Of a DNA stretch of 64,000 bases, positions 5,455 to 39,999 are shown one piece after another. Each line of letters starts with the position of its first letter. Within the stretch, counting starts at the first letter, position 1. The stretch is taken from assembly GCA_008632985.1 (NCBI GenBank), contig QPGO01000020.1, positions 248,001 to 312,000 on the forward strand, in the 5' to 3' direction. The notes beneath the pieces were generated by a model. That model did not search any database and had not been told where the DNA came from. It saw nothing but the letters and a program-made list of their open reading frames with translations. The position numbers and the translations under genes are program-made. This DNA comes from Psammoneis japonica (lineage: Eukaryota).

Positions 5455-5799
5455 GAATGCTTTATACAGTTTCGGTTAAACAATATATTATTTTTGGCGA
5501 TCGGACATTTTGATAAGAAGATTGTGGTACGACACCCTCGCACGTTTCTACGATAAATCCGCAATCACAAAAATCAAACCTTGCTTGCCACGCCAAAATC
5601 TCAGCACCCTAAAGACCACACACAATTCACGATGCTTTCAAAATCAATCACATCCACGATGTAACAATAAACCATGAGATGCAATCACTCCACCCGCACC
5701 ATTCCAATGGAAGCCATGGGCCGAGCTCGAATGACATAGAAGACTTCCGAGGGGAGGAAAAGAAGCCGGCCGCCAACCGAAGCGGAGCTCGAACGTGAC

Positions 5800-8700: not shown

Positions 8701-9450
8701 GAGGAGAAATCAAAATCCTTTTTGTCTCGCATTTCAAATGGATCTTTGACAAGAAATGCGAACTTTTCTCCTTGCTGGGTCCCGGTGGCAACACTTGTGC
8801 CGAGAAACGACCAAAAAGAAAGCAGGATTAGAACCCAAGTACAGTGCAAGCTCAGCACCTCTCTAAATGTGCTGAACAACAGCAGAAATGCCTCAACAAG
8901 CGGCTGGGGCCCTGGAAAATGCCAGCGCAAATCGGCGCTGATTTCCTTCGTGCTTGACTGACTCGGCATGGTCTTTGTTAAGAGAGCCGAATGGCAGACA
9001 CAGCTGGGAATGTCATCGTTGATGGCACATGGCTTGACAAACCATGGAACAAATGTTTTGCATGCTTGACTTTTGACAAGACCTTGCTGCGGTGAAGCAA
9101 GTGGCTGACTCTCCACGCGCATCCTGAAGCTGCAAAACAAACCTGTCGTCCTCAACGAGACAGTGCAACTGACTGTGCACATCCCATTAAAAGTCCGCAG
9201 CCGCAATGTTGCCTGTGCACTGTGTGTGAGAACTCTGGATGAAATGCAACAAACTGGAGCACCTCATTCCCCCGCCAACGTTGATGCAAAAAACTGTGCC
9301 GCTGCTCCTTCTCGCTTGTTGTGGAGAGGCAGAAGGCAGAAGGACAGAATGAATGCTTGCACTCTCAACTCACTCCCTGTTTGTCCAGACACTGCACAGG
9401 ATGAGAGATGCTGGATCCAATGCAGCGCCTGCTCTTCAAGTGCTTGTTAG
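5800..9450. other. TpA-depleted block A (CpG largely retained)
   Basis: Hand count for 6721-7320: 0 TA, about 27 CG. ORFs in the block have almost no Tyr. Confidence 0.9.
6730..7600 (+). pseudogene. Mutated member of an acidic Ala/Val/Pro-repeat protein family ending in RRSxRL...GSVxLL...GRxVRRSARI
   Basis: Three internal repeats (VxPLVQEAxSNDxTSVPNQ...ESLIADTSA). C-terminus RRSVRLGEALGSVHLLAADG*TVRRSARILNRR matches the end of the 58896..60110 ORF; the TGA at 7561 sits where Arg (CGA) is expected. Confidence 0.7.
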
Positions 9451-16636: not shown

Positions 16637-19600
16637 CGTGCTTGACCCAAGAGATACTGTAGACAGAACAGGTTAGCATGAGTAATGATATTATGATGAT
16701 GCCTGCTTGCTTGTGACTGAATTTTCATGGCGGTGAAGCACGAGAGGCGAATAACTCGACTGGACTCAACCGGTCCCGATTTTTTTACAACGTTGCGGCG
16801 GTAAGTTCGTTCTATACTTTCTCATTTTATGCGCCTTTTATATGCTCTCTAAAGATGTTGTTTGTGCTTTGGTACAGCTTGAAAGGTGGCTTGATCATCT
16901 TGTAGTCTACAGTCTTCGGTCGATTATCGCTTCTGTGATATTGGCATCGTTTGCACCCCCAAAGCGCTCCCATTAAGGAGCCTTTCACTCGCTCCCACTC
17001 AACGACCTTTGGTCGAAAATTTCATGATACATTACTGATCTCGTGATGCTCTTGATTTGCTTCTCAGGGTCTTGGTCGGCTCGTTATGACGGCGTGTCGT
17101 TTTTCGGCCGTCACAATTTCTCAAAAGTGTATGCCATCCGAATGAAACGATGCGATGGAGCCTCGAGGACACTAATGATGTTGATATTTGTCAGAGAGAC
17201 TTACCATAGGTCAAAGAAGATGCCCCTATGAGCATGTCGTGATTGATTGAGTCTTACAGTCGTTTTGACGAAACTCACCTACCTCACGAGCCTTTTTTTT
17301 GTGTGTGCCGTTCATGCATGCAGGTATCTGGTCTTTATTGACCTTTTCTTCTTACTCTGCATCCGTATTATCTTTGCTATCTAGGACACGATATCGCTCA
17401 TGCTATTTTGGGAGATCTTGGTAGTTACACTACCAGTCTAAGCTTTGCATTGGGCACAATGGAGAGGTGGAGGCTTGTTTTGCCGCGCTCCTCGCCTCCT
17501 CTTGGATGAGCGGATGCCACGAACCGCTCGTGGTGCTTGGGGCCATGAAACTTGGTATGGCAACTCAGAAATACCTCTGGAAGGTGTGAGTATACTGTGA
17601 TTTGTGTCCTCAGTGGCTTTTTAGTGTGTACGTCGTTCCACTCAGATTTGCATTTTGCCTGGTATTTTGCCAGCACGATATCTGTGGCTGCGAGTGCTTA
17701 CAGCGGCCTTTCCGGGCCATTGTTCTACATGACATTAGTCCTTTGATATTCTTTGTTCATTTGGGGAAATCAAATCCTGAAACTTTCAGTATCTAGTCGG
17801 GTCTAGGCTAGAGAGGTAAGAGTAATAATGGATGAAATGTGGACCAGGTCATGGAAGGAGTTTGGGCTAACGTGCTGCTTCTTTTCGACGGTGGAGCGAG
17901 TATGTATAAGTAAGTCGAGCAAATGTGTCAGTGCAAGAGTATGTTCGTGCAGATGGACGACTCTCTCTAGAGAGGGCTACTACTCAAGAGTGCTACTACG
18001 CAAAGTAGAACTTGGCACAGAGGTAAGAGAACCATTTATGGATTTCGACCCCGTTGACGACGAAAAGTTGGATAATCCCTTTTTTAAAACGACTTGTGGC
18101 AATTGATATTCTTTAGAGGTATGGTTGTGTAGCTCTTAGTATTCTAGTTTTCTTTGAGGGTAGGATTGTATCGCGTGTCCTTCCGGAAGAAGTCGCTTGC
18201 GTCGTCATTACGTTGTTGCGCGTTAATGCATCCATCGCGCCCCGCGGCGGCGCCAGTTAGTCTCTAGTTATTCGAGCGAGCGCAAGTTCATTCACACGCC
18301 ACAATCGTTTGACGCTTCACCTTCTCATGCATTTTAAAACAAGAATGGGCTGAATGGGTGGAAATTCCATTCAGAAACATGCAATGCACCCTCACCACAT
18401 ACACACAGCCTCTCTCCCTTTATGTTGCTCTTTCAAAAACTCGGCCGTGCTGCCTTGGTGTGTGCACAAAAAGAACAAAGGGAGAAGACCATGCCAAGCG
18501 AATGACTCTGTGAGAACAACAAGTTGCTGCACATCTGAATTGGCAACTCAGTGTCACTGTGTGCCATGATGCTCCCACAGGCTTGTCAGCAGCTTGTCTC
18601 CTGCTGCTCCACATGTTTTGACCAATTTGTCAAAGAGGGTGTGCAGCCACACACTGCACCCTGTGCATTTTTTGCAGCTTGGGATTGAACCATTTGCACA
18701 TGTCTTTTTTGCTTTAGAAAGACAATCTCCAGATGCTTTGTGTCAAGCTCAGAAATGATCACACCTGCCATCACTGGAGACTTCTTGATTGGAGCAGACA
18801 TCTGCCAAATCCCCCCCCCCCCAAGTCGTGGTGAGAGAGTTCTCTTGCTGTTCCTTCCTTGTGAAAGACAAGAGAGGGCTGCACACAAAAATGAACCACT
18901 GAACACATGTGTCCATGCATCTTTCATGGTCAGACTTGTGGCAACAAAGCTCTAGATTGGCTGTTTGAGCTGTGCATTTTTGTGAATTGCTGCTGGAGTT
19001 GTTGAGCAAAAGAGTTCAAAAAGGACAACATGATGTGGCATGACTTTGGTTTTGACACACATGCTCCTGTGGGGTGGGGTGGGAGGCATGAGGGTGAGGA
19101 TTTGCACATGGCAAGAGTGCAAGACATGTCTGACGCAAGCAAATTGGATCAACAAATGAGACTTTAGTTGATGACAGCTCCACAAAACTCTGTGCTTTCT
19201 GCAATGCTCAGACAAAGGGATGAAAAGGTGGCATGATGGGAGTGTGCACAATTGATGTCATCATGCAAAGAACTTGGTCTGGTGCAAGCACCCAGAAAAC
19301 AGTCCAAGTTCACAACAGGCTCAGAGCCGAGTCCCTTCACTTTGCTGCTCCAGCTCCATCATCTGGTGCAAGAGAGGCAGGGGATGCATGCTGGAAACAT
19401 GGCAGAACTGCGCACTGTGACATCATCAACCTGAGAGAGCTGACTCAGATCATTCATTTGCCTTAATCAACAAAAGACATGTTTCAAAAAAAGCTTGCAA
19501 ATGGAGACAGAACCACTGAGGTTGTGCTGTTGCTGCTCCCAACAGCCCCCAGGTCAATGGAGCACATGGGAGAAGCCAGTCTTTGACTTTGCCCATTTGA

Positions 19601-20089
19601 GGTTTGGCGGGGCTGTGACTTTTCAGCACTTGCTCAGCCCTCCAGAAGCAAGAATTTTCATTTTCTTGTGGAGCAACTCAAGAAGGCTTGTTTCATGTGG
19701 CATGCACAGATGGTTTTTGTTGCAATGAAAGAGACTGGCTTCAACAAGTGTCTCTCTTGCAGAAGACCTGAAGCTCAAGACCACCCACTTCACAATGCTC
19801 TTCCAACCCAAAAAATGAGTTGCACAGGCCAAAACAAGGAGAGAGACCATCCTTCTCAGTCTGGGTCTAAACCATTTGTGGCGTTTGACTCTCTCATTCC
19901 TGCTCACATCATGTTGCTTGAAAACAAAATGATGCATTTCAGAATCAGCTTGACAACTTGCAGTGCATCCAGCGCAAGGTGCAGGCTTGACCCAATTCAC
20001 TCTCTGGACACATTCAGTCATCACTCTGACATGACAAGGAAACCCTGGTGGCATGCACTGAAACCCCAAAGGAGAAAGGGAGCCAGACA

Positions 20090-23000
20090 CAGTGATGGAC
20101 AACCAGTCTTCACAGATGTCATAGAGGATCATCCCCACAAGTCCATCTCTTGCTTCATGCCACCACACATGAAAGCAGTTGCAAGATCCACTGCATTGCA
20201 TTCAAATGAATGTGTCCAGTGAGTGACTCACCCATTGCCACCAGCTCCCTCACAGCATGGCAAAAAACAGAGTTCAACTTCTTCTTCAAAGCAGAGTCTG
20301 GACTTTGTGTGTTGTGGACAACTGACACGTTGTCCCCACAGACACAGGATGGAATGGACAGCAATGCACACCCATCATCCTTAATTTGTGTTGCAAGCCA
20401 TGCAATGACTCCACGCCTTGCTTCATGGCTGTGAACTTGGATCCAAAAACCAAGGTTTCAATTGTGCTTTGTGGCACTTAGACCACACTGCCAATGCCGT
20501 GTTCATGCAGATGAAATGGTTGGCACGTGAGCGCCTCATCAACTTGTCATTGGTTTGATCCAAGTCAATGAACAAGTGCAGATCTGCCTCCAAGCCTGGA
20601 GGTTCTGGCACATTGGGTGGGACCACTTCATGCAAGTCCCCACAAAATGACTTCCAATCACATTCCTTGAAGTCAGACATGTCAATGTCTGGACATGTTG
20701 GGTCAAACACCAACCTGGCATCATGTCTCACCTTGGGGCATCCACAGACATGGAAAGCATCCTCAAAATGACCCTCCCTGGGCATGGCAAGAAATGAGAC
20801 AAGCTCAGAAACCTCCATTGTCAGATCAAGGCATCCAAGTTCCACCATCCATTGCAGGACACCTGCCTGTGTCCTCTGGTGGAACTGGGCATCTTCTGCT
20901 TCAAGCTCAGGTGACACACCTAACTCAGGACAACAATCCCATGGAAACAGAGCTGATCCCAAGTGTGGCAATGTCCATCCAGGGCAGCATTCATCCAGAT
21001 GTGCCTCTGCATTCTTGACAGCCTGCTGGATGCACTTGCTGGAGCTCATGCCCCAAGCACAGATGCCATTTGGCATTTGCACCTCTTGGATTGTGGCACC
21101 CAGATGCATCTCAGGGTTGCCTGTTGAACCAGGCTTCATCTTGAAGCAATGATCCAATTCCTTGAGTGTGCTCTCATGGCATTGTGGTGTGCCATCAGTG
21201 CATCATCCACACGCAGTGGTGCATGTGCACAGCACCACCAAAACCCATCCTCCAGTCAGACCACTTCTTTGAGCCATGCTTGGGAAGAGCCAGGCAAGGC
21301 TTCCACCCAAGATGGTGCACGCAGGAGGCCAAGTGATTCCTGAAGGCTGTGCCTGCGCTCTTCAAGCCACAAAGCATGTGTTTGACTGTTGCACGTCTCC
21401 CTGCACAATGTCTGAACTCTGGGCCTGGAGCCACAGTGATCTTCTCACTGTCAGGTGCAGCAATGCAAGCATTTTCAATGTCAGCTGCCTCAACCTCTGA
21501 GTCATTCAGAGCAGCTAGAGTGAAGGCGCAATCCTCACACTCTCAGGTGACACAATGCTTGCATGCATCAGGGTTGCAGGCACATCAGGCAGTGGTGTGT
21601 CCACCAGCTGCACAGTGTGCCTTGTGCTTGAAGTCTTGCAGCTTTACATCAAGAAAGACCAAGTGACATTTGACATGCTGGCATCCTGCCAGCTTCTTGT
21701 CATTGTCAATGACCTTGAATGCCTTGTCAACAACACCCATCTCCTTGTCTGTGGCATCTTGCCACAGGTGATTGCTGCTCACCTGGTCAATCTTGACTGC
21801 CTCATTGCACGTCTTGGGAGTGCGTGTCCCACACTTGTGCATCCATTTTTGATGCCACTTGTTCACTGCAGCAATGATCTGATGCCATTTCTTAAGGTGT
21901 GAGGAACCCACCATGCAAAGGCTGGTTCACCCTTGATCAACTGGGCTCTGGCACACTCAGCCAACTCAACCAGGTTGGATTCCTTCAAGTCTGCAAGGTG
22001 TTCCCATGTCATGGTTCCACCCTTCCAGCAAATGCAAAGGTGCCATCCTTTGGTTGTCTTGCGCATGGTCTGGCATCCTCCACTGTCCTTTGAAAAAGTG
22101 CCATCCTTCTGGACTGCATGCCAGTCAGTCTTGTGATCAACAACAGCAAGTGCTGGTTGCCTTCATTGTGGCATTGTGTGAACATGTTCTTAGCTGTGAG
22201 CAACACAACTGTGGAGCACAGGGTTCAGTCTGCTTGGCATGGCAGTCAGCCTCCCTGGTCTTCTTGCTGAACTGACCCAGCATCTGCTCCTTTGCCCCAT
22301 CTATGATCATTGTGTGGGGTGCGCCATCTTGTGCAAGAAAGAGCAAGGACAGAGCTTCATGTGCTGATCCTTCAGATCTCAGGGGGACAAGCCCAAGCCC
22401 AACCATTGGACATGACAAAGACTTGCACACAGGTGTCACCCCTTCTCAACTTGGTCAAGGAGATTGAGGTGTTGGAGCACATCTTCTCTGCAATGCACCT
22501 GCATCACAACTGTTGGTCGTTGGTCCCAAACCTCTGAGATGACATCAGATGGAGGACCATTTGTGTGCCACGCTGAGTTGTGACCTTGACAGTGTTCTCA
22601 GTTCTCAGCATCCTTGACACTGACAGACCAGTTCTTGGCCAAACATTCTGCATCAATGTGCAGCTCCTGCTTCATTGTTTTGAGCAAAGAGAGACTGATC
22701 AAGACCAGCAGCATGCAGTTGTTGCATGCATGCAAGATGTCTTGAAGCAGCTGATTCACCAGGCAGTCTGTCTCTTGTGCTGCAGTGCACAAGAGCTTTG
22801 TGCTCATGATGTGGATCTGAGGATGTGCGTCACCCCCGGTCTCAGGCATGTGACCAAGAGAGTCCGTCATGGAATCCTCTCTGGTTTGAAAGTTGGCAGT
22901 TTGTGGGTCCCATTCCAGGGACTTGCAAGTGAGTTCTGCTGCAGTGCCATCTTGTGCAGCTGCTTCACACTCTGCAGCAGTGGGTTTGGAGGTGGGGAAG

Positions 23001-24935
23001 CAACTGGTGAAACCATCCAATTCTAACAGAATCATGAGCTCACCCCCATTGGCATCTGTCAATGTCCGTCGCCACATGTGACTTGCTGTCAGGCTTTGTC
23101 AGCAGGAATTTTGGTTGCAGATTAACTCCCGTGCCATTCAGCCACAACTGCATGGGACACAAAAGGTTGTGTTTGAGGTGCGGGACATGCACTGCCTGGT
23201 GGACTGCCACCAGGATGCATTGGTGGCCCAAGGCAGGGTTCGTGTTTGTGACGGCTCCGCTTGCAGCACACAGACTCTTGCTGGTGCCCTTTTTTGGGTT
23301 GCAACCTGTGACATCTGCTGGACGGTCATGGTCAAGCACAATTAAAGCATGCTCACCCAGTGCGCTCATGTCTGCATGACTGTCTAATTCAGCACAAGCT
23401 TCAGTGCACATGGCTTCCCTCATGGTTGTTTGGGTCATGCACAGGGTCCAAAGTGGACTGACTGAGACACATGGCCAAAGAGGGCAATTCTTCCTTTTCC
23501 TTCCTGCTGGGTTTAAGGTTGCCATTCTTGTCATGCTTCTTGTTGGCCACCGTGTCTTTCAGCAACTGAAAGTTGGAGCAGCTGCACTTCTGCTTGATGG
23601 CAAGCCACTTTGTGGTTTCTTTGGACTCACCAGCAGTGTTGTCCTGGTGGTCCTCAATGTGAGCACTGATGGCTGCAACCACACTGGTGAGGGCCTTGAT
23701 CTGCTTCATGTTTTTGGCCGCAGATGTCGTGTCTTGGCCACTGCGAGCATGTCACATGTAAACTTGAGCTTCTTTCATGCTTTTGGGGACATTTGTTTGC
23801 ACTCCTTGTTGGGGCAGTGCTTGCCCTTGATGATGCCTTTCTCATGAATGACATCATTGCATTGGCACTTGAGTGGCAATGCAAAGCTTCTTGTTTTTGT
23901 TGTCCAGCTTTGACTGCTTGATGAAGTTTTTGTGTGAGACAACACACCCATCAAAGTTGCTGCGCCACAATCTGTGCCTTGATGGAGTCAAGGGACGTGT
24001 CCTTGATGCTCTCCAGAAGGTGGCATTCCTTGGAGCATTGGTCAACTCCAGCACAGACACACTCCTTGAGGCCCTCAATGACAGAGTGCTGTTCAACATG
24101 AACATGCAATGGGCACTCAAAGTTCCAGTTTTGGTGTTTGCCGTGGCAGGAAAGACCTGCTGAGTGCTTTTTTGCCACATCAGCCATGTTGTCTATGTTG
24201 TTTGGACCCAAGAAGTGATTGCACAGGTTCAAGTGGGCTGTCCTGTTATCCTGGTTGCACTGAGCCTTCTTGACACATGCCCAACACAAATGTTCCCATG
24301 TGATTCCAGCAATGATCTCCCAAACCTTGAAGCTGTTGGTGGCAAACATTTCAGTGGGTTGCAGGCTGGCCCCAGCAGCGATGTGGGGGGGGGCACGGGC
24401 AATCATCTCAGCACAAGCATCAGCATGGTTGTTGGTGTCATTGTCTGCCTCCGGCACAACCGCCTGATTTTCTTGGACCACGCAGGCTGGGGGCATGTCA
24501 ATCTCCCCACGACAAGTGCAAAGATGTGCGCGCGCAGCTTCCATCATCTTTGGCCAGTCCTTCTTGATGACAGCAGGCAGGGTGCAAGGGTTCTGTGGAA
24601 GGTTTCTGCTGCACAAAGGTGGTGGCACCCCCTGACATGGTTGTGAGTGACATCGGTGGCATGCAACGTGTGTGAGACACGCTGATGGTGACAAGCCATG
24701 AAAGCTGCAAGCTTGAGATTAATCTCATCCCGCAGTGATGCAACAGTCCCCAGGCTGGGTTGTGGATTTGCTCCACCACCCCATTGTTGCACAAGGTCTT
24801 GATCTTGTGGTCATCAAGATGATGCAGTTCTTTGATGGTGTCAATTCCCTGGTTGGCGGCAAGGGCCACTGACACTTCATTTGTGAAGCGGGGTTTGTGG
24901 TGTGCAGCATGCATGGCTGCAACATGAGCTGCCAT
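20090..24935 (-). mobile_element. Degenerate Ty1/Copia (diatom CoDi-like) LTR retrotransposon: gag - protease - integrase (partly deleted) - RT - RNase H
   Basis: gag-like LCNHFLGPNNIDNMA (~24200); protease ELDSHAD (~23380); integrase IIDGAKEQ/KQTEP (~22270); TWEHLADLKESN..ELAE..AFAWWVPHTL; RT AAGGH, LCGLKSAG, xVDD (~21205); RNase H IETLVFGSKFTAMK. Copia domain order, many stops and frameshifts. LTRs not identified. Confidence 0.93.
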
Positions 24936-25460
24936 GGTTGATGGTGTGGTGGTTCATTGATGACAAAACTCTCTTTCACATGAGGCTGAGTTGTGTGGTT
25001 CTCATTCGAAAAGTCAGCAAGTTGTGTGAAGTTCACATTGCTTTTTCATCATCACAGACTGGGTGATTCTGCAAGTTTGTCTGAACAATGTGTCTGCAAT
25101 GAGACTTGCGTGACCACAAACCAACTTTGTTCCTGCAATCTGCCTGACCGATGCTGATGGTGAGTGCAAATTAGCAACAAATGAATGTTGTGCTGTGTGC
25201 AAATCTACATGCGATGTTGTCACCCAGCAATTTCAAAATTGCTTGTGCATTTGCCTCTGCACCATCTGTGAATTTTAATTGCTTCACATGTTTGCATTTG
25301 CTCAACGGACAAATGACATTGTGTGTGCTTGGATTTCTGAATGTTTTGTTCCCAAACATCAACTCTCTGCTTCTCACCAAAATTGCCAATTAAATCGTGA
25401 AACCTCAATGGAAAAGTGGTTGGTTCCAGAATTTGTTGAGCAAAAGGAAGTCAAAACACA

Positions 25461-25755
25461 AGTTAACAAAAGCCAACACAAGCAAACAAAAATCAACATC
25501 AGTCAACACCAGTTGACAAATGTCACTTTGAGTCAACACGAGTCAATGGCAAAAGCACAGAAATGTCTCTGCAGACAAAGCAACAGTCTTGCACCTCACT
25601 CACCAACAGCCCCCCATGACAAATGTTGCAGATGCAAACAGTTTTGCATGGGCACCATGCACATTTGACTGGGCAGAGTCAACATGAGTCAATGCAAGTC
25701 AAACAAGTCAACAAAAGTCAATGCAAGTCAACACAAGTCATCAAAAGTCAACACA
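25461..25755. repeat. Two short arrays of a 10-bp unit AGTCAANNNN (25461-25546 and 25677-25755)
   Basis: Units such as agtcaacatg, agtcaatgca, agtcaacaca, agtcaacacg and agtcaacaaa in 10-bp register. Confidence 0.8.
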
Positions 25756-26488
25756 ACTCTGTGTGCTTGAGCAAAAGCATTCAAATTTACTCACGACTTA
25801 ATTTGTTCAACACTTCACATCACAAATGAAATTTGTGCAAGATGTTTCTTGGCAAGTGAACAAGGCCAAATTCAATGGTCATCCGTCAAATGAAAATTGC
25901 CAATTCATCCATTGAAATTTGAAATTCACACATGATGCAAGACTGAATCAACGAAATGTGCGGACAGTGCCAAGACAACTTTGGAATGGAAATGGCACCC
26001 CAAGAAATCCACAGATTGTGCTCTGCTGTGTTTGTGCATGTGTCCCTCAAAATGCATCAGAGCAGATGATGCCACAGTCATCAATGAGCATTTAAACTTG
26101 TGCTGATCCTGGGAGCACAAAACTTGTTGAGCACGAATGCTTCTTGCATTTGCAGATGTTTTCCAGTTGTCCCTGACTTTTGTGGAATGTTCTGTGGCAT
26201 CATGAATCATTCACAAGCAGAGGTGACACTCAGACTCATTGTTTTGCATGGCAGTGGCTCCAACAAAGTGAACAAATTACCCTGCAGTCATGCGCACTGG
26301 GGACTGGACTAAAAGAAAGCTTGCAACATCGTGCCTGTTTTCCAGAAGTGAGATCTAAACCTGAGGAACCGCTCTGTGCTCAACCGCCACTGACAAAGCA
26401 CACAAAACTCACACAAAACCAACTCGAGTTTATCACATGGCAAATTCTTCATGCCAAGGGCAAAAATCTTGAAAATCATGATGAAGTG

Positions 26489-26515
26489 ACAACAACAACA
26501 ACAACAACAACAACA
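26489..26515. repeat. (ACA)9 microsatellite
   Basis: Direct reading. Confidence 0.95.
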
Positions 26516-27411
26516 GAAGCACTTCAAAATGGCTGTTGCAGAGTGCTTGCACAGCCAAGAAGCAAGCCAACAACAAGCTCAGCACACTTTGGCTAGATTG
26601 ACTTGCACTTGGACTTGGCAGTGGCAAAGAAATGGCGTTTTGTCTTGGATTGGAGACCCAGTGATGGGGACGACCAAATCAAATGAACAGCAACTTTTGA
26701 AAACCTCTGACGATGACTGGCAAAAGTGCAAAAAGACCTTGGCTGGCTTTGTCAGCTCCTGGAAACCCCAAGAGAGAGAAGGGCCATGAACATTGCAATT
26801 GCAGCCACTTTGAGATCTTGCAGCAAGATGCAACAGCCAACCCAAAGAGTGGAAAAGCACAGTCTCTTGGGTTCTTGCAATGAATCGTGTGTGTGGCCGG
26901 CAGCAGCTGAGTTTTTGTGGTGCTGGCTGAGCATGATGACAACATTCACAAAAAGGACAGAGGACAGCACAATGACAAAATGACAGCAACAACTGTTTGT
27001 GTCACTTTTGCCATCAAAGGAATTGTGAATGCTCAAATGGATGTGCCTCTAAAAGCAGGTTCCCGCTGTCCCCATTGGTGCAAACATGTTGCAGCAGCAG
27101 AGGAGCACTGCACAGAGAGTCACATTTTTGTGACCAAAATCACAAACATCATTTGGGGGCTGCATTTTGCCATGTGATGTTGGGCTGAACAATTGGCGTG
27201 TGTTTCATCGAGATCAACGAGAAATGTCATGGTCGCAGTTGAACAACTTCAGTTGCTTTTTGCCAACAGAAAAGCGGATGCGCTCTCGCGCACAGAGGAC
27301 GCGGACGGACGCGGGTGAGAAGCGCCGATGGATAGATGAGTCCTCACTTTTTTTTCTGACTCATCCCTCATCTCCCTCACTATGGAGTGACGACTAGCAC
27401 AATGTGAACTG

Positions 27412-27732: not shown

Positions 27733-27986
27733 TTATACTGCAGTTCGTAGAGCTTTTAAGTACGTAGACTGGTACAAATTCTACACCAGGAGTCATGTGC
27801 AGTCATTTTACATACAGATCATCCAGACATAAAATATATATTCACATACAAAATATATGTTTCTGAATGTTCTATATTGCACATTGTGCTAGTCGTAGCC
27901 TCATACTGTACGTTTCGTCATCGCGTTCATTGGCAAAGCTGACGAAAGCCAAAGCAGCCAAACACTGACCGTGAGTTTGAACCGTG

Positions 27987-29560: not shown

Positions 29561-32261
29561 TTTGTGGCTGAAGTGGGTGCAGTTGGTTTTAAGAGGCATG
29601 ATTGTGCTGCTGTGCCACATGAGGGAAGGGGTGCCTTGTCAATTCATTTGCAAAGTGACTGCTGCTGTGCCTTGCCACATGCATGTTGTTTCTTTTCCAG
29701 AGGAAGCAAATTTGAGCTGATTTTCTTCCACAAGAAAACACCGAAAGGTCCCAGAGTTGTTGTTGCTTGAGGTGTTGATTCATCCTCAAGAGAAGACATT
29801 TGCAGGCCAAAAGGAGACTCTTTCAAAGATGACAAGCAGAGACACCACCACTTTGTGATCACATTGAAATCATGAGTTTGTCAAAAAGAGGTGTGGTGTT
29901 AACAGCATGCAAATGACCATGTGATCACATGAGATCCAGTCTGTCATGTTGGCATTTGGCAAGGAAGCAAGAAGCAGCATTCCTCACCTGCTCAAGAACA
30001 AGAAAGGAGTTTGGCTCAGCTTGTCACAGCTCAACATGTGAACAAGGTCAGGGCCTGACCATTGCATGCAGAGTTGTCATTGTCTGGTTTGTGAGTTCAA
30101 GCTTGTTCTTGGATTTTGTCAACGAACCAGCAGCAACCAACTTTTACAACAAGTTGCAGGGTGGACTGCTTGTGTGGCAACATTGAAAGCCTTGCCTTTT
30201 AAATGCTCAGCATTGACTCCAGATTCTTGCTCGAGCACCAGTGGCAAGCATCTGTCAGAGAGCAAACTCCTTTTTTGTCATCAAGACACATTTTTGGTGC
30301 ACTTGGCAATGCTGGGAAGCAGCAGCCAACAAGCTCTGGATGTGTTGCGCCTCAGACCTTTTGGCTCTGTGCAGATCCCCAAATGTTTGTCTCAGTGTTG
30401 CATTCCAGGTGGCACAGCTGCAATCATTTTTGACAAGTTGCTGGATTTTCGATTCTGCACCTGCATTGTCTTCATTCTGGGAAAAGCATTTGGTGAAAGT
30501 CAAACACCAAATGACATTTGAGGTGGATCAATGACCAAAGCTTGAGCTGGTGTGCAAGGTTGAGTGGACACAGAACAACAAGCTGGACACCTTTGAACCC
30601 TCAATGGGCTGTGCATGACATCTCTCCTGAGGACAACGTTGCCAAAGATGCTGGTGGCAGCAGAAGTGTGGAGTCAGCAGCACACTCACATGTGTGTGCC
30701 ACACACATTGTTTCACAGCAAACTCTTTGCTCAAGGGTGGGCTTGACCCTTGGAAGATTTTGACACTGGCACAGCTGATCATTTGTGCAAAAATCCTCAC
30801 CCAACTGTGGTGGGCTTGAAGACAGCACCATGCCTTGATCATCATTGCACTGGTGATGCAAACACTCAGATGAAACCATGGGTGCTGCTCTGGTGCATCA
30901 AGAAAGACTTTTTGAAATTTGAAAGTGCCACATCTTCCTCACCTCTTTCAACTCAAAACAGCTCACTTGGTTGGTGGATAAAATCTTGGAAAACCACAAG
31001 GTGCTTTCAGCTTGCAGTGGACTTGTTTCCACCAGGATGATCATCCAAGGAAACTTGACACATGCCACTGCTGCTTCCTTGTTGCAATCACATCATGGCA
31101 AGGTGAAAGTTGTTCTTGTCAAATCCACCAACTGCAACAACACTGGCACAAACACATCCCGTGCCACGGCATCAAAACCAAGATTTGCTCATGCAAGATG
31201 CTTGGTGCCAGTCAAACCCAACATTTGTCATCAAAACAAGGACAGAAACAAGCCATGCAAGTTGATTCACTTCATCTTGACCATGACAACAGCACTGCCC
31301 ACAGCAATGTTTGTTGGCCTCCCTTGGCTGAGAATGCTGCTGGCCACCCCAATGAGTTCTTGCTGTGTGGCCAAAGTCAGCCTTCTTGTTCTCCAAGCAA
31401 TGGCTGCAACTTGAGCTGTTTTCCATGATCTCATCACCAACAAGAACAATCCATGACTGCAACACTTCCAAACAACAAAAGGAATGAGCTGAGTGCTGTG
31501 CTCCACAGAAAACGAGATCTCTCTCTGCTTGAATTGCCTGAGCTGTTGAGCTTGGAGAAGACAACAAATGTGCTGATGATGCAGAAACAAGTGCAATTTG
31601 AAGCAGCAGCTTCACAAGAGGTGTGGTTTCATGCCATCCATCAAAGAATGAGAAATGAGTTCTCTTGGTCATCTGTGCACTGGTCAATGGGCAGGCCAGA
31701 CAGGCTTTTTCTTTTTGCACTCATTTCTTGCTTTGGACAGCATTGAAAGCACAGACTGCAAGAAAAATGCCTGCCTTGAATCTTCCAAAAAAAGAGTCAA
31801 AGACACTTTACTGCAGCACCAGCATTGAGCTTTGTCGTGGTGATCACTCCACAGCAGAGCACAGATTGGAGTTTGTGTGGGCAAGCTGTGCCATGAGCAA
31901 CAATGGCGCAATGACACAACCCTTTTTTCTTGCACACATGTCTTTGGTGAGGTCATGTTTGCTGCTTTGAATGCTGAGCAGCAATGTCCTGTCCACACTG
32001 TCTCATTGTGGCAGCATGGGTGGTTGGACCACTTCTGCAGCCCTCCCAAGTGACCATGGATGACCACATTGATTTTGTGTTTGACACAGGTGTTTTTTGC
32101 ATTTGAATCATGTGGTCATTGTTCAAACATCTTTTTCTCCTCATTTCAGTTTTGCACTGAAATCTGTCCATTTAAATGCAAAATGACAGTGATCAGCCTG
32201 GGGCAGCAGACTTGCCAGATGTTGATGTGGGTGATGCTGCTGGTGCACCAAACAGCTGCAT

Positions 32262-32669
32262 TGAAGCCCAGTTGATCCTGAGAAACAACAGGCCAAGGCT
32301 GTGGAAGACACCTGGCAGAAGTTAAACAAGGGCAAAGTCATTTCCAAAATTGGTCCTCTGTGCAGCTCTGGAACTCTGTGGAGTTTGGTCTGTTGCCAGT
32401 TTGTGTCAACATGATTTGTTGGGATGAACAAGAAGAAGGCCAGTGTCCACATCCTAAATGACACAACTGAAGCCCAGTTGATCCTGAAAAACAACAGGCC
32501 AAGGCTGTGGAAGACACCTGGCAGAAGTTAAACAAGGGCAAAGTCATTTCCAAAATTGGTCCTCTGTGCAGCTCTGGAACTCTGTGGAGTTTGGTCTGTT
32601 GCCAGTTTGTGTCAACATGATTTGTTGGGATGAACAAGAAGGCCAGTGTCCACATCCTAAATGACACAA
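32262..32669. repeat. Near-perfect tandem duplication, 206-bp unit (32262-32467, 32468-32669)
   Basis: Copies differ by about one substitution and one AAG unit. Confidence 0.95.
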
Positions 32670-35569
32670 TCATCTGAGAAAATTCAATGATGTCTGCTCC
32701 ACATGCTGAGCAATGAGAGACAGTGACAAGGCACACAACAACTTGCAGCCACAGCAATCAAAGAGATGGGCCAAATCAACAATGATGGGGTCCTTGCTTG
32801 CACTCAAAAAAATGATTTTCACATGGTTTCACATCATTTGAGCATTTGTTGAATGAGAAAAACAAATGGTCAGCAAGCAAAACTGTGCATTTTTAAGGTT
32901 TGCCACATTCTTCTCATTGTGCTCAACAAGCATTGCCTTGCTTGTGGCACATCTTTGGGTGAGGGTTTCTGCCATGTGCCATGCACCCTGTTCTTCAAGG
33001 GTGGCATTCTCTGTTTGATGAATGCAATCTCTGTCTGATGTTTGACTTCCCAGCCAGCTGTCTAGTTTTCTTTGACTGTGCACCCTGCTTGTCAATGAGC
33101 TTCAAGTTCAAGGACAATCATTGTTCCAGGTTGCTGCTGCTGCTGGAAGATTTGCCACATTGACACTGTCAAACATGGCAAGGGTGTCTTTGTTGGTGCA
33201 TGCTGAGTGTGGTCTGCCAAGCCACCATCATCAAAACCATCTTGTGTCCCTTGGTTTTTCTTCCATGGCTGCACACCAAGGCCAACAAGGGTCACAAATC
33301 TGGCCAGCTTGCAGACACAGCATCAGCCACACAAATGCCGCCAGAACACAAATCAACATTTCTGCATCTCTGGTTTCCTTTCCCAGCCTAGCACAAGCAA
33401 AAAGCCAAGTTCAAGAGCAGACATGCAGTGACAATGAACATGACATGGCATTGGCAACATTGGAGTGCACCACAAAGGCTTTCATGATGATCCCAAAGGA
33501 CATTGTGAAAAACACAGATCTGCCAAAAAATGCCAAATGGAGCAGAGCACATCTTGTCATGACATGAGCCAAATTGGAAAGTCATCTCTTTGTGCACGAC
33601 ACATCTTTTCTTCAAGGCACCATTTGTGGCTTGAGCACCACACTCTTGGCAACCAATGAAGTTTGAGCTCTTGCAAACATTCAATCTGCTGACCTCTCTG
33701 CAATGTTGTGAATGTCACAGTGGGCATGCCCAAGAGAGCAGTCACACTGACAAAGGTCGTCATCAGTGCATCCACACCAAAGTCATCATGTTCAAAATTT
33801 CCAACAAACATTTGACAGATGGGGAGACAGGGAAGCCATGCAGATTGTGCAAAGCATGCCATCACAGAGTGCCACAATGCCAACAAGCACTGTCAAGCAC
33901 CAGAACCAGATTGTCAGCAAGAAAATCCACACCATGAGAAGTTTGGTGCAGAAATGCCTGGCATGCCAGAGAAAGACATCCAAGAATGGCAACCCCCAAG
34001 CTTGCTTCAAACAGGCTGACAGTGTGCACCATGTGTTGCCAACTTTCTGTTTGTGATTTGCAAAAAAATTCCATTGCCCCCCCAGCCTTGCAACAGTTGT
34101 TGCAAGTTCTTGAAAGGCAAAACAAGACAGCTGCAGGTTTGGGTTTGAGCCAAAGCATCAACAAAACCTCTCACAGACTGCATCATGGTTTGGGCATTGG
34201 CTGCAAGCACAGGGCAAAACACAAGCCACCATGGCACAGATTTGTCATCCTCTCAAAGTTTGCCCTGACAACAGCTGGAGAACACAAACAGGACAAAAGC
34301 CACTCTTGAAAGCTTTCTGTGAGGGATGTCAGCTGGATGAGTCATGCCATTTTGCCTGGAGCTGTGTGGTTGTTCATTGTCTCAAAATCAAGCTTGGCTC
34401 AGGTGTGGAGGCAGAAGCCATGCAAGGCTCTCAGGCTCAACAACATGATGCCTCCCCCTCCTGTCACTCACGGATGTTGATCTTGAAGCTCCACCCAAGA
34501 CAGTGGCTCCCAGAAGCATGTGGACCAAGCCACTTCTTCATGTGTTTGGAAAGAACAGAGGGGCTTGGACTGGCTGCACAAATGCTTGTGTCTTGAGACA
34601 GGGGGCCAAATTGAATGACAACAGAGAGCTCTGCTCCATTTTGGCCAATGAAAAGGAGTGCACATCTGTCACACTCTCTAGAATGGAGTGTGCCAGGAAG
34701 GTTCAGCCAACACAGCCAACACACCAGCAACAGGACTTGCAGACTTCAAGCTTCCTCTCTGCATGATGGAGACAACTGGTGCATGATTTGTCCATGCAGG
34801 ATCATTTGCTGCATGAGCAGCAATGCTGTCATCAAGCCATCCTGCATTTGCCAAGTTTCTGCGTGCATCTGCACAGGAGGTGCACTTTTGGAGCTTGCTG
34901 TAAAGCTGCCCTGCTTTTGGAGACAACAAAGCAACCCACACACTGGCATGCTGTGCTTGAAGCCTGTGGATTGTCAACAAAAGGAGACTGGAACAAGAAG
35001 CAGTGCAGGGGACAATGTGCCCCCCAAATGCCTCAAAACACAAAAAAGACACACGCAGGAAGAGCAGGATTGCAAATGAGAGGGTGAAGAGGTGCTGCAT
35101 TTCAATTGTGTCTCTGGCATTTGTTCCTTGCTGTTGCCCTCATTTGAGGCACAAGTGGCTCTTGGAAGATGACACTTGCTGCAGGAACAAAAAAGATGGC
35201 AGCACGGTCAATCGGCAGAGCCCCTTCTCCTGCAAGCATGCAGAGCCATTGACTGCAATGCCAGGAGAACTCGCGGCACCATCCCTGAGTCTCCCAGCCC
35301 CAACTTTGGCAACAGCACAGTGCATGGTTTGCTTGAGCAGTGAAATCTTTGCTCTTGCTCTCAAGCTTCTTGTGGTGCTTGCAGATGAGAACTTTCCATT
35401 GCAGCAGCTTGAAGCTGCTTCTGCAACAGATTGGGCATCATCAGGAGATGCGTCTCTCCTTGTTTGTTCTTGCTGTCGAGCTCTGATTTCTCCAGAAGCG
35501 AGGCAAGAAGCCCCCTCTTGGCTCTTCTCCACACCAAGAGGCTCAGTTCAGCATGCTTTCTCAACCATG

Positions 35570-36150
35570 ATGTCTTCTCATGGATCAGGTCTTGAGAGAA
35601 GACTGAAGCCATCAGATCAGCCAATTCAACCTGGACAGACAGAGCAATGGACAGAGCATCGGGCTGGTGCAGCAGGGGCCAGATTTGGGGTGACTGAGTT
35701 CATTGACTGTCCTTTCCCATGTGAGCTTTTCAGTCCGCTCAGCCCCCCGGGAGCTTGGTGCTTGGACAAATGCAATCAATGGGTTGCGTGCGGCTGATGG
35801 CGGTGATGGACCAGAGTCCCAGTGTGATGGGATCGCAGGACCCGCTCAGGGATTGCAGGCACCACGGACGCTTCATGTGCCATCTCCTGGACGACCCCAA
35901 TGATTTTGAGTCCCCAATCACAGCTTTGAACAACACTGGCAGCATTCGAATCATTGGATTGGATGCAGGTGGTGGCAATGAGCTTGATGATCTAGTTGAT
36001 GCAACAGGAGGAACGATCGCACCCCAGCTCGGACGGGAGTGGAACATTTGCTGTTGCTGTTGGGTGCAGAGACTTGGTTGCATCTGTTGAGCCAAGCTGT
36101 TTGAGTGTGAAGGAAGTCCAGTTTGCCTCAAATGGAGTGGTTGTTGGAGG
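35570..36150 (+). pseudogene. von Willebrand A (integrin-beta-like) domain gene relic
   Basis: ARFGVTEFID..., WTNAINGLRAADGGDGPESQCDGI (family motif GGDxPESQYDA), ALNNTGSIRIIGLDAGGGNELDDLVDATGG, spread over several frames. Confidence 0.7.
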
Positions 36151-36217
36151 TCATGCGGTGATGACATCTGATTTTGTGCACGGAACTGTCATTTGTCCGT
36201 TTGTGGTTGACACCACA

Positions 36218-36521
36218 TGCTCGTGCCAAACACACAGTGTTGTTTCTACAGTGGAGACTCCAAGTCGAGTAAAACGAGCAAAAACGACCAAGTTGTTGGT
36301 GGCACATCGTCTCAAATGCTTGGCATTTTACTCATCTTACTCATCCTCCTTCCAGAAAATAAGTGGCTGTTCTCTAACACTGTGTGCTCATGCCAAACAT
36401 GTGTGTGGCATTTGTTCTACAGTGGAGACTCCAAGTCGAGTAAAACGAGCAAAAACGACCAAGTTGTCGGTGGCGTCTAGCATCAATGCTTGGCATTTTA
36501 CTCATCCTCCTTCCAGAAAAT
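36218..36521. repeat. Diverged direct duplication (~140 bp; 36218-36360 and 36385-36521)
   Basis: Shared core TTCTACAGTGGAGACTCCAAGTCGAGTAAAACGAGCAAAAACGACCAAGTTGT; differences include CG/TG and CG/CA pairs. Confidence 0.9.
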
Positions 36522-39416: not shown

Positions 39417-39999
39417 GGTTGGGAGAGGGAGAGGGAGCAAAAAATCGCTTTTCCAGTGCTTTGGAATGATCCAGTCACGTTGATCAGGGTTCCTGTCTCA
39501 ACAAAGATGGAAAAGTGAGAGCAATAAAACGCCGACAGGTTTGACAGGTCTCCGTGACCAGTCATCTTGGGCCAGAAGTACCCGCTTCTGGAAGAGGCAC
39601 AAGTCTTAGGACATTTTCCGATGAGAGGTCTTGCAACGCACGGTTCGTCTCCATCTAAACTTGGGTACGAGGAGTGCTGTGTGCTGTGCTCGCTGCGCGT
39701 GAAGAGACGCTTCCACTGTGCCATGTCATCGCTCGGAGTGCAGACAGCCGAGGCGGAGGCAGGGAATCTGTGGGATTCGGGTATTTGATAATGATCATTC
39801 AACGGAAAGCTTCACTATCAAAATCAGACAGTACCCATGATGTTATAGACATATTATATTGTTGAATAAGTTGATTCATTCGTGAGATGGGCCAAAATTT
39901 CAAAAAATGTATGACGCATCACAAAGCAGAGGGGAGGTTTTCCAACTTCAGCACTCTTGAAAATGCGATGGGTGTGGAACAGGGGATACAACCAACAAA

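Follow-up and report, generated by a model that had tools for sequence, protein, structure and literature searches.

Decayed islands nearly free of TpA in DNA of diatom affinity suggest a TpA-to-TpG/CpA process of the kind described in Bigelowiella natans

Until a preprint of 2026, hypermutation targeted to regions of resident DNA, mobile or foreign, and specific to one dinucleotide was, to our knowledge, established in fungi only. The fungal process, RIP of ascomycetes, requires duplication and a premeiotic stage. It introduces transitions at a dinucleotide on both strands, within sharp bounds, and causes an irreversible loss of the coding capacity of mobile DNA. In animals, ADAR and APOBEC provide a deaminase-type editing against selfish nucleic acids, acting on RNA or single-stranded cDNA and leaving a one-strand signature. 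The closest described system is that of the rhizarian Bigelowiella natans, for which the main text of the preprint by Mettrop et al. (bioRxiv 10.64898/2026.01.13.699255) describes integrated DNA of NCLDVs and virophages as being hypermutated specifically at TpA. In two hypermutable regions, 230 of 231 mutations were A>G/T>C, and these all fell on TpA, at a rate of about 6e-7 per site per generation (10.64898/2026.01.13.699255). The same source reports 124 TpA-poor/CpA+TpG-rich clusters in the genome, finds TpA-depleted coding sequences to be enriched in RT and DDE domains, and proposes an ADAT2-like candidate, citing claims of DNA editing by ADAT2 (10.64898/2026.01.13.699255).

Here, we have analysed a stretch of 64,000 nt (hereafter the window) whose host is a stramenopile of diatom affinity, as supported by the finding that two diatoms are the only eukaryote-named relatives of one of its host genes. 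It holds four TpA-free blocks (Table 1, where block 3, 29590-39525, is listed in two parts), which total 26,182 nt or 41% of the window. The blocks contain 110 TpA, for about 1,095 expected at background density, i.e., about 90% are gone, and the observed/expected ratio (o/e) of TpA is 0.03-0.07 within them and 0.62 in the rest of the window (1,582 TpA in 37,818 nt, with a CpG o/e of 0.98). Gaps without any TpA reach 1,406 nt. Chance cannot be the cause of this deficit. The borders of the blocks are sharp, from tens of nucleotides to about 200, and all four islands are flanked by host-type ORFs with TA o/e of 0.45-0.85. An earlier note on this DNA had singled out 18330-27200; the region is real (40 TpA, o/e 0.07; 84 CpG, o/e 0.16) but too small, given the four blocks across the window. 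Its count of two TpA in 20401-21000 was recovered exactly, and so were the scarcity of CpG and the excess of TG (1.89) and CA (1.87) in that region, where AA (1.17) and TT (1.12) are the same as in the background.

Table 1. Features of the window, with strand where assigned
Feature	Coordinates	Strand	Description
TpA-free block 1	5737..9448		TA o/e 0.07, CpG mildly low (0.69); no recognisable protein domain
TpA-poor, CpG-normal margin	5750..6499		TpA o/e 0.09-0.27, CpG 0.91-1.12
Decayed internal repeat in block 1, ~222 nt	6991-7493		About 222 nt
TpA-free block 2	18421..27333		TA o/e 0.06, CpG 0.19, TG and CA 1.87
Decayed Copia-type polyprotein remnant	20146..23444	-	tblastn with 19 intact polyproteins: 100 HSPs, all within the span
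RT-region ORFs P0001 and P0002	20426..21542	-	0 Tyr; mutated motifs RVDD (for YVDD), LCGLK, DPTCP, FCGD
Block 3, left part	29590..35999		Strongest decay: TA o/e 0-0.08, CpG 0-0.34 per 500 nt; no recognisable domain
Block 3, right part	36000..39525		TpA o/e 0.03-0.26, CpG moderately low (0.47-0.87) per 500 nt; host-like gene remnants
Fragment of 104 aa resembling PIG-U, a GPI transamidase subunit	37557..37868	+	Pfam PF06728, E 3.2e-7; 0 Tyr, 9 Cys
Leucine-rich-repeat ORF, 248 aa	38258..39001	-	Pfam LRR_14, E 1.8e-17; 0 Tyr, 12 Cys; within TpA-free DNA
TpA-free block 4	48279..51899		TA o/e 0.03, CpG 0.34; no recognisable domain

What has been lost seems to have been converted rather than removed. 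The o/e of TG and CA is 1.5-1.9 in the blocks and 1.1-1.2 in the background, and the mononucleotide composition is equal inside and outside, with A and T content unchanged. GpC is raised (1.14-1.26 vs 1.01), ApT is lowered, and the biggest trinucleotide gains are those of GCA/TGC (1.86-fold), CAC/GTG (1.63-fold), and ACA/TGT (1.59-fold). These by-products are predicted only by a change of TA to TG/CA, and they fit this direction of change. The four blocks contain only 169 TAA/TAG, against 1,296 TGA, and this near-absence of two stop codons results in long spurious ORFs in all six frames. Could error-prone synthesis leave such a trace? Patch repair of the Pol eta type (A>G at WA), one of the agents suggested in the earlier note, and GC-biased gene conversion both raise A:T>G:C changes, and Pol eta prefers WA. 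However, mutagenesis at WA would affect AA as well as TA, and the o/e of AA is 1.17-1.23 in the blocks and 1.13 outside; AA and TT together span 1.12-1.28 and 1.12-1.13, respectively, in line with the earlier remark that AA runs look untouched. The loss is limited to TpA and follows a rule on the 3' neighbour (see below), and A and T content has stayed constant. We thus disfavour the Pol eta candidate and regard both explanations as extremely unlikely.

The island that is best understood is block 2, which includes a frameshifted remnant of a Copia-type polyprotein. The HSPs with intact polyproteins are co-linear and span gag/protease, part of RT, and RNase H; a middle part of P0004, the full-length relative with the best score, is unmatched in the remnant (residues 208-456, approximately). 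The element is dead, its frame being broken into many pieces, and neither an LTR pair nor flanking direct repeats were detected by self-comparison. Searches of the decayed Copia ORFs against Pfam gave no match at 1e-3, and phmmer gave 2,974 matches at E <= 1e-3 (best E 8.5e-57). The two RT-region ORFs, 20426-21202 (259 aa) and 21198-21542 (115 aa), are devoid of Tyr, for a median of 4.2% in the 150 best database relatives. All the peptides quoted previously were found on the minus strand: CAHAPLRVDDALMA at 21231-21190, TLKELDHCFKMKPGSTGNPEMHLGA, SSKCIQQAV, FDPTCPDID, and WKSFCGD in the first ORF, and LCGLKSAG in the second. To place the lost Tyr, we aligned the remnant with 19 intact polyproteins (at least 900 aa, more than 2% Tyr) chosen from the 150 best relatives, yielding 243 conserved columns. 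None of the 11 columns of conserved Tyr has retained it, and in its place we found 7 Cys (TGY), 3 His (CAY), and 1 Ile, as expected from the earlier proposal that conserved Copia Tyr had turned into Cys or His. With a looser threshold of 50%, the 16 Tyr columns have 10 Cys, 4 His, 1 Phe, 1 Ile, and again no Tyr. The other conserved residues are mostly kept (Trp 9/9, Gly 19/22, Glu 15/17, Pro 12/14), apart from Arg (7/19), for which 8 of the 12 changes are of the CGN-to-CAN/TGN kind. The presence of both Cys and His in place of Tyr, the near-equal numbers of TG (1,033) and CA (1,048) in block 2, and the fit of TpA survival to a two-strand multiplicative model (see below) indicate that both strands were affected. 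The direction of change can be read directly in the Copia remnant, as judged from the alignment; in blocks 1, 3, and 4, it is suggested by the di- and trinucleotide by-products and by internal repeats. Individual TG/CA derived from CpG and from TpA are indistinguishable site by site.

Since the best-characterised target is a retrotransposon, the changes could have been made in RNA, by A-to-I hyperediting of its transcripts (ADAR-like or fungal TAD2/3-like), and then fixed by reverse transcription and reinsertion. The discussion of the B. natans preprint adds that ADAR usually favours U upstream of the edited A (10.64898/2026.01.13.699255). Yet, editing of the sense RNA turns Tyr into Cys only, and His occupies 3 of the 11 Tyr columns, or 4 of the 16 obtained with the looser threshold. 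It also accounts for 22 of the 41 residues at 8 conserved-Tyr columns of seven Tyr-poor proteins present among the 150 best relatives, 37 of the 41 being His or Cys. The ADAR-type signature, with A>G on the transcribed strand only and limited to the element, is not what we observe: the loss of TpA covers non-retroelement DNA, including the leucine-rich-repeat and PIG-U remnants and the CpG-normal margins. In addition, a G on the 3' side is favoured by ADARs and in fungal editing but disfavoured here, where TAG outlives TAY. Finally, the integrated DNA in which the B. natans mutations appeared was single-copy, and the cells were growing clonally (10.64898/2026.01.13.699255). An origin in RNA thus seems very unlikely, and we favour mutation of the DNA itself.

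The blocks might also be foreign or selected DNA that was always poor in TpA, e.g., to avoid a TA-cutting nuclease or insertion of transposons targeting TA, with no hypermutation at all. TpA is under-represented in most genomes, as it is in the background of this window. However, the intact relative L001/L002 has a TpA o/e of about 0.9, with 0.78-1.07 in all 500-nt segments but one, showing that intact relatives are not TpA-poor and that the deficit is not intrinsic to the element family. Selection would not swap catalytic or structural Tyr for Cys or His, nor break the frame, and the gain of GpC and loss of ApT are mutational by-products. Over 266 aligned nt of one intra-block repeat, CA in one copy faces TG in the other, as two adjacent differences, 7 times, and in another pair TA in one copy faces CA in the other. 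Contigs from a public DNA run (X1) that are paralogous to the window differ from it at 1,092 transition places and 394 transversion places. The double differences between repeats and the abundance of transitions among paralogous contigs indicate that mutation took place after duplication. We consider it highly unlikely that these blocks never had a normal TpA content.

Modified DNA can mislead some base-callers, and the blocks are probably methylated, given their CpG decay. Hence, an artefact of sequencing, base-calling, or polishing had to be considered. Contigs of X1 at single-copy depth (k-mer depth 56-74) reproduce the TpA-free sequence, with 0 differences over 2,165 and 4,431 nt and 3 over 3,152 nt, and one of 5,988 nt joins the 16-kb host gene to block 2, crossing its border and reaching 20237. 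As X1 is possibly a source of the assembly or of its polishing, and so possibly not independent of it, this match rules out an error particular to this assembly but not all upstream artefacts. We see clean transitions, which do away with codons for conserved Tyr as well, and paralogous contigs carry independent transition differences. Furthermore, the same Tyr-to-Cys/His scar is found in the seven Tyr-poor relatives, which come from three other data sources (ENA, JGI/IMG, and Logan). An artefact is, in our opinion, highly unlikely.

How does the loss of TpA relate to that of CpG? Transposable elements of diatoms are methylated. By analogy with this methylation, a subject treated in PMC9998398, the CpG-to-TpG/CpA decay in the island cores is most likely due to 5mC deamination. 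Such decay of methylated transposons would explain the loss of CpG and part of the excess of TG/CA in the cores, but it is unable to remove TpA, a distinction already drawn in the earlier note. The TpA-free domains are wider than the CpG-poor cores and extend into CpG-normal DNA; margins like the one in Table 1 are also present at 39000-39499 and 51500-51899. CpG decay and the TpA process act in opposite directions, which explains why base composition is unchanged. Copy number by itself does not account for the targeting, because a multi-copy AT-rich repeat adjoining block 2 (27339-28005) was spared, its TpA not being low. The DNA at 29.3-36 kb is near single-copy in summed depth and yet fully decayed: taking summed contig depth as a rough guide to copy number, X1 contigs reach 64-143 per bin in the left part of block 3, whereas values of 300-860 are typical of most bins in the Copia core, which draws many paralogous contigs. 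Domain searches, including Pfam, gave no recognisable TE protein in blocks 1, 3-left, and 4; TE nature is proven for block 2 only, and we infer that the former are mobile DNA. The PIG-U-like fragment of block 3, for which no homologues were retrieved, probably derives from a gene of host type that was copied and has decayed.

The few TpA that remain depend on their neighbours. Their survival relative to background is 0.33 for YTAR, 0.078 for YTAY, 0.043 for RTAR, and 0.017 for RTAY (Fisher odds ratio 7.3, p = 3e-21), and survival in the mixed classes would be 0.075 under a model in which the two strands act multiplicatively. On each strand, the loss depends on the 3' neighbour of the adenine in the order TAT > TAC > TAG > TAA, which is also the order given by trinucleotide ratios. 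YTAR makes up 62.5% of the surviving TpA in the blocks and 22-25% of the TpA in the intact Copia relative. This rule could in part be due to TpA being formed anew more often in some contexts, and not to its resisting loss there. Regarding the agent, there is roughly an even chance that it would be a TA-specific DNA adenine deaminase, turning A into inosine that is read as G. The TadA/ADAT2 tRNA adenosine deaminases, from which DNA adenine base editors were derived, have a U 5' of the target A in their natural substrate, and bacterial TadA reads UAC, similar to the preference for TAY in these blocks. However, their best context, TAT, is not known as a natural anticodon-loop context of ADAT2/3. 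The same targeted process on both strands could instead attack thymine, by oxidation of the TET/JBP type at TpA to 5hmU/5fU that mispair with G. TpA is self-complementary, and all our sequence results can equally be written as T>C with a preference for a 5' purine. Dinoflagellate DNA has its 5-hydroxymethyluracil concentrated at TpA and TpC; mispairing with G is a property of 5-formyluracil. On the other hand, we know of no thymine hydroxylase reported in diatoms, and the candidate named for B. natans is ADAT2-like (10.64898/2026.01.13.699255). We see chemistry on thymine as a less likely alternative.

We consider it likely that the islands are decayed mobile or duplicated DNA, rewritten by a TpA-to-TpG/CpA process of the same kind as that of B. 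natans. In this process, the islands, which are free of genes and of which one is demonstrably a Copia retrotransposon, would mutate at the DNA level after insertion, the T:A pairs of 5'-TA-3' becoming C:G on either strand to give TpG or CpA. Mutation is limited to sharp-bordered domains and has run almost to saturation, most efficiently where a pyrimidine follows the adenine, as read on each strand independently. Ordinary CpG-to-TpG/CpA decay has taken place in a narrower core of each island. Targeting may follow silent chromatin, and the outcome could be defence, by a permanent loss of foreign coding capacity; conversion of TpA hits every Tyr codon and many codons of Ile, Val, and Leu. The claim of the earlier note that a second, near-saturating process acts in delimited regions, apart from CpG decay, is thus supported by direction, specificity, effects on both strands, the intact relative, and the public run. 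The literature that we searched includes no report of a TpA-erasing process in diatoms, of which that note knew none either, but the process itself was already preprinted for B. natans.

Three features of the latter, namely A>G/T>C changes at TpA, effects on both strands, and confinement to delimited regions, are found here. In both cases A:T>G:C changes at TpA only give TpG or CpA depending on the strand, delimited regions of foreign DNA are concerned, and TpA is depleted in the long term with a gain of CpA+TpG; low-TpA sequences of B. natans are likewise described as rich in reverse transcriptase, DDE domains, and ORFs that cannot be annotated (10.64898/2026.01.13.699255). The systems differ in degree, since the B. 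natans NCLDV region has a Rho of 0.45 and the cut-off for clusters was <=0.43, and in target, a giant virus there and a Copia LTR retrotransposon with host-like gene remnants here. The rate was measured in real time in B. natans, whereas here we have the accumulated scar alone. The main text of the preprint does not mention CpG, nor trinucleotide, context, or neighbour, such that the coupling to CpG decay sets our case apart and the 3'-neighbour rule is new relative to it. Other novelties are the stramenopile host, a process close to saturation both in a Copia retrotransposon and in the islands near it, and TpA-free domains wider than the CpG-poor cores. Relative to RIP, the direction is opposite, as noted earlier: RIP turns CpA/TpG into TpA, which becomes enriched, and the low TpA (0.03-0.07) and high CA/TG (1.5-1.9) of the blocks are not its signature. 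As to duplication, which RIP needs, a multi-copy neighbour escaped here and a block at near single-copy depth was hit. The B. natans target is also single-copy, in clonal lines (10.64898/2026.01.13.699255). ADAR and APOBEC differ from what we describe by their one-strand action, as opposed to changes on both chromosomal strands with 3' G disfavoured.

More tentatively, and with somewhat less than even confidence, we suggest that a chromatin-directed DNA base-editing defence acting on 5'-TAY-3' may be common to Rhizaria and diatoms, and thus to two or more SAR lineages that are distant from each other. Among the latter, it would have been completed in essentially every silent island, erasing TpA, all Tyr codons, and TAA/TAG stops, over domains wider than those of 5mC and independently of copy number; the Tyr-free "hypothetical proteins" of Copia type found across catalogues of marine metagenomes would be its footprint in natural populations. 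If such a shared defence is true, comparing the sets of deaminase or thymine-modifying genes of Rhizaria and diatoms would point to the enzyme, which must match the trinucleotide preference reported above. Epigenome maps would offer a test of how TpA loss relates spatially to 5mC. A natural enzyme editing adenine in DNA, if it is the true agent, would be of interest for base-editor engineering. There are also consequences for annotation, since TpA-free DNA explains Tyr-free "hypothetical proteins" in public catalogues and the loss of TpA hides transposons from domain searches. Finally, the erasure of TpA in a second lineage of eukaryotes would mean that Bigelowiella is no odd case, and would place the process in diatoms, which are ecologically dominant and several of which can be genetically manipulated.

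Sliding windows reveal that TpA has nearly gone from four blocks of the window, and not only from the one flagged in the earlier note. At 26,182 nt in all, they take up 41% of the window (see table) and contain 110 TpA, against about 1,095 predicted from the background density. The observed/expected (o/e) ratio of TpA is 0.03-0.07 in the blocks and 0.62 in the rest of the window; that of TG and CA is 1.5-1.9 vs. 1.1-1.2, and that of CpG 0.19-0.69 vs. 0.98. The frequencies of A, C, G, and T each stay within 0.02 of the background, where they are 0.24-0.26. The near loss of TAA and TAG (169 together, vs. 1,296 TGA) leaves the blocks open in all six frames, so that ORF length is meaningless there. 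In block 2, the flagged one, we recovered the two TpA previously counted in 20401-21000 and, on the minus strand, all the reverse transcriptase (RT) peptides quoted with them; neither ORF of the RT region encodes a single Tyr. TpA is normal in the DNA flanking the blocks and in the host-type ORFs between which all four lie (among them NPC1-like, helicase, thioredoxin/PDI-like, aldo/keto reductase, F5/8-type C domain, and PhoX).

Coordinates of the TpA-free blocks and of other features of the window
Feature	Position	Strand	Basis
TpA-free block 1	5737-9448		Sliding-window TpA
UPF1-like/AAA_11+AAA_12 helicase	10516-14624	plus	Two overlapping ORFs, 805 + 635 aa
Helicase ORF compared with relatives	10516-12930		Protein relatives
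Spliced region of gene left of block 2	16115-17404	minus	Skips in X2 contigs
TpA-free block 2 (flagged)	18421-27333		Sliding-window TpA
Copia-type remnant	20146-23444	minus	Alignment to intact polyproteins
AT-rich repeat adjoining block 2	27339-28005		Composition, X1 contigs
TpA-free block 3	29590-39525		Sliding-window TpA
Tandem duplication	32262-32669		Internal alignment
Skipped segment	33302-33487		X1 and X2 contigs
PIG-U-like fragment	37557-37868	plus	Pfam
LRR ORF	38258-39001	minus	Pfam
LRR ORFs	38258-39241	minus
TpA-free block 4	48279-51899		Sliding-window TpA
Long ORFs with tandem repeats	57715-60107		No Pfam match
Coding tandem repeats	58575-59814		Units 86-93% identical

Block 2 holds a dead Copia-type retrotransposon. 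A 259-aa RT fragment has 2,974 relatives at E<=1e-3 (best 8.5e-57, 47% identity), the closest being metagenome proteins, and 19 intact full-length polyproteins, picked from the 150 best hits as having at least 900 aa and more than 2% Tyr, align co-linearly with the block across several frameshifts. Part of the middle of P0004, the full-length relative that scores best, is unmatched. A search for LTRs and inter-block repeats found no LTR left around the remnant and no repeat shared between blocks, which are not copies of one another.

The intact polyproteins reveal the direction of change. Among the 243 columns in which at least six of them are aligned and at least 70% of those agree, none of the 11 Tyr is kept: seven are Cys (TGT/TGC), three His (CAC/CAT), and one Ile. 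Other residues are largely kept (Trp 9/9, Gly 19/22, Ala 21/26, Glu 15/17, and Pro 12/14). Arg remains in 7 of 19 columns; of the other 12, 8 (3 His, 2 Gln, 1 Trp, 1 Cys, and 1 stop) fit CGN->CAN/TGN, as would be expected from CpG decay. The Val->Ala (3), Ile->Thr (1), and Leu->Pro (1) replacements that the earlier note had predicted are also present. Lowering the threshold to 50% gives 16 Tyr columns (two overlap, in different frames), again without any Tyr left: 10 are Cys, 4 His, 1 Phe, and 1 Ile. Composition, a protein-independent view of the blocks, agrees: GpC rises to 1.14-1.26 and ApT drops to 0.81-0.89, shifts that GTA->GCA, TAC->TGC, ATA->ACA, and TAT->TGT produce and that CpG decay cannot. 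The largest trinucleotide gains are those of GCA/TGC (1.86-fold), CAC/GTG (1.63-fold), and ACA/TGT (1.59-fold). In a decayed internal repeat of block 1, with 63 mismatches in 266 nt, there are seven adjacent CA<->TG doubles, which mark single ancestral dinucleotides converted on a different strand in each copy; in another repeat pair, a TA in one copy aligns with CA in its partner. It follows that A:T>G:C transitions, hitting both strands once the DNA had inserted or duplicated, removed the TpA. Editing at the RNA level is a disfavored explanation of the loss, since the His replacements of Tyr count against it, as does the spread of TpA loss over DNA that is not retroelement.

The reading of TpA->TpG/CpA hypermutation made in the earlier note is correct, and the signature is genuine and striking. 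It is specific to its context, with AA and TT undepleted and the same A+T content as in the background. Since neither AA nor base composition departs from the background, we rejected both Pol eta and GC-biased gene conversion; selection against TpA was also rejected. The intact Copia control is one relative seen twice (L001 and L002, 98.7% identical), found via the RT relative P0019 in a search whose returns did not include the 20.8-kb contig of P0019 itself. Apart from one 500-nt window, its TpA o/e is 0.78-1.07, and its CpG o/e is about 0.9. The possibility of an artefact, also raised previously, was addressed with contigs of a public DNA-like run (X1). These have no difference from the window over 778, 2,165, and 4,431 nt, one over 440 nt, and three over 3,152 nt. 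Their depth of 56-74 equals that over the flanking host genes, and one 5,988-nt contig passes from the host gene into block 2. This excludes an error specific to the assembly and leaves room for other upstream artefacts, as X1 may be the assembly's own data; base calling as the cause of the blocks was rejected. Many further X1 contigs match 20-24.6 kb at 80-95% likeness. Between these paralogues and the window there are 1,092 transition places (A>G 304, C>T 273, G>A 253, and T>C 262) vs. 394 transversion places, an excess to be expected from independent conversion of each copy. Contigs of a second public run (X2) give no cover over 18.7-27.3 kb, which carries no weight as evidence of silence.

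Methylation of transposable elements at CpG is established in diatoms (PMC9998398), and the blocks also lose CpG. The CpG-poor cores are nested within broader TpA-free domains, which indicates that the two losses are separable processes. At the margins (5750-6499, 39000-39499, and 51500-51899) the CpG o/e is 0.83-1.12 and that of TpA 0.03-0.27, and in block 1 and at 36-39 kb the values are 0.47-0.74 and 0-0.26. The loss of TpA is both fuller and further-reaching than that of CpG.

The 104 TpA that survive in block cores are not random with regard to context. Survival relative to background density is 0.61 for TTAA, 0.32 for CTAA, 0.28 for TTAG, 0.20 for CTAG, and 0.05 for GTAC, with 0/121 for ATAT and 0/123 for GTAT. 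By class (Y, pyrimidine; R, purine), it is 0.33 for YTAR, 0.078 for YTAY, 0.043 for RTAR, and 0.017 for RTAY (Fisher odds ratio 7.3, p = 3e-21). In a model where adenine is lost independently on each strand, with a chance set by its 3' neighbor, the pure classes imply that the adenine of one strand survives at a rate of 0.57 before a purine and 0.13 before a pyrimidine. The value to be expected in the mixed classes is then 0.075, near the observed values. Susceptibility follows the order TAT > TAC > TAG > TAA, and the trinucleotide ratios agree (0.02, 0.05, 0.13, and 0.23). Of the TpA left, 62.5% are YTAR, whereas the intact Copia relative has 22-25%; three blocks show the pattern individually, with 9/16 in block 1, 27/37 in block 2, and 27/46 in block 3; block 4 has just five TpA. 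Context-biased re-creation of TpA could contribute to this pattern.

The changes occurred in DNA, on both strands, after insertion, and are TpA-specific, context-dependent, and bounded by region. There is perhaps an even chance that the agent would be a TA-specific DNA adenine deaminase, turning A into inosine, which is read as G. The 3'-neighbor rule reads equally well as a preference for a 5' purine with thymine being attacked, and an activity that oxidizes thymine to a base pairing with G could be the agent instead, although we consider this unlikely. Targeting would depend on chromatin state rather than copy number: using summed contig depth as a rough guide to copy number, 29.3-36 kb is fully decayed at an X1 depth near single-copy, and the high-depth repeat adjoining block 2 keeps a TpA o/e of 0.78. 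That repeat is AT-rich (GC about 36%), with a CpG o/e of 1.39, and draws X1 contigs at a depth of 500-700 and less than 90% likeness, which identifies it as a short multi-copy repeat.

What else the blocks contain is harder to recognize. Blocks 1 and 4 and the left part of block 3 are presumably mobile DNA. In Pfam at E 1e-3, the LRR ORF was the sole find among 50 block ORFs; a relaxed pass at E 0.05, over 139 of the 172 ORFs in the blocks with at least 75 aa, added the PIG-U fragment and sub-threshold noise only (most of the other 33 were in the first pass or are antisense over Copia, and a few are neither). Both finds look like decayed host-type sequences because they are Tyr-free and Cys-rich, and may be host genes, duplicated or captured, that the same process ruined. 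The DNA surrounding them is TpA-free and only mildly CpG-poor. The PIG-U fragment had no match among longer proteins, the longest ORFs of blocks 3 and 4 had no usable match in the protein atlas, Rfam found no RNA family in the window, and megablast of the element against a phage collection, a poor target for it, returned nothing. Block 3, the most decayed, contains a tandem duplication of about 205 nt whose copies differ at 1 of 202 aligned bases. The same two YTAR TpA survive in each copy, so the duplication postdates most of the hypermutation. The same block includes a 184-nt segment with non-canonical ends that is skipped in X1 and X2 contigs, probably a DNA-level deletion variant or a second haplotype and not an intron.

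The surroundings place the window in a diatom or close relative, as the earlier note assumed, and not in Bigelowiella. The helicase ORF has 135 relatives at E<=1e-10. Among the best 120, just two bear the name of a eukaryote, in both cases a diatom: Mayamaea pseudoterrestris (50% identity, E 9e-209) and, at 45%, an Attheya sp. entry. The other organism-named relatives among these 120 are bacteria, at 39% identity or less. Homologues of the aldo/keto reductase were uninformative as to taxonomy. The division of this helicase between two overlapping ORFs points to an intron or a frameshift. Left of block 2, segments of 66-201 nt are skipped by X2 contigs; their CT..AC ends are those of GT..AG introns in a gene on the minus strand. 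These spliced joints indicate that X2 is RNA-like and that the gene is expressed and spliced. Towards the right end of the window, coding tandem repeats lie in long ORFs.

The scar is not unique to this locus. Among the 150 relatives that score best with the RT fragment, seven have 0-1 Tyr in 110-374 aa: P0019, P0093, and P0129 from JGI/IMG, P0008, P0016, and P0098 from ENA, and P0040 from Logan. At eight columns with conserved Tyr in intact relatives, 37 of their 41 residues are His (22) or Cys (15), and Trp is kept in 17 of 18 cases. These Copia RT fragments, three of them annotated "hypothetical protein," read as if translated from TpA-erased DNA in other samples, some of which could be of the same species as the window.

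The earlier note knew of no such system in diatoms. The process was first described in a preprint of 2026 on Bigelowiella natans (Mettrop et al., bioRxiv 10.64898/2026.01.13.699255). According to its main text, 231 of 302 nuclear mutations in mutation-accumulation lines fell in integrated NCLDV (186 kb) and virophage (25 kb) regions. With a single exception these were A>G or T>C, and each of the 230 was on TpA, at a rate of about 6e-7 per site per generation in some lines only. The genome has 124 clusters of TpA-poor, CpA- and TpG-rich windows, reverse transcriptase and DDE domains are enriched in low-TpA coding sequences, and an ADAT2-like deaminase was proposed, as a hypothesis. None of the terms CpG, diatom, Copia, retrotransposon, trinucleotide, context, and neighbour occurs in that main text; its supplements may hold context data. 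This preprint was the sole directly relevant work found by a full-text literature search, which, partly among top-ranked matches only, returned no diatom report of TpA/CpA/TpG hypermutation, RIP, or the like. The portion of the Phaeodactylum mutation-accumulation paper covered (PMC6604790) mentions no hypermutated region. The finding opens no new category, being a further, saturated instance, in a stramenopile, of the process in B. natans. The erasure of TpA may act as a defense. What the finding adds are the trinucleotide rule and the spatial relation to CpG decay, which provide testable handles on the enzyme.
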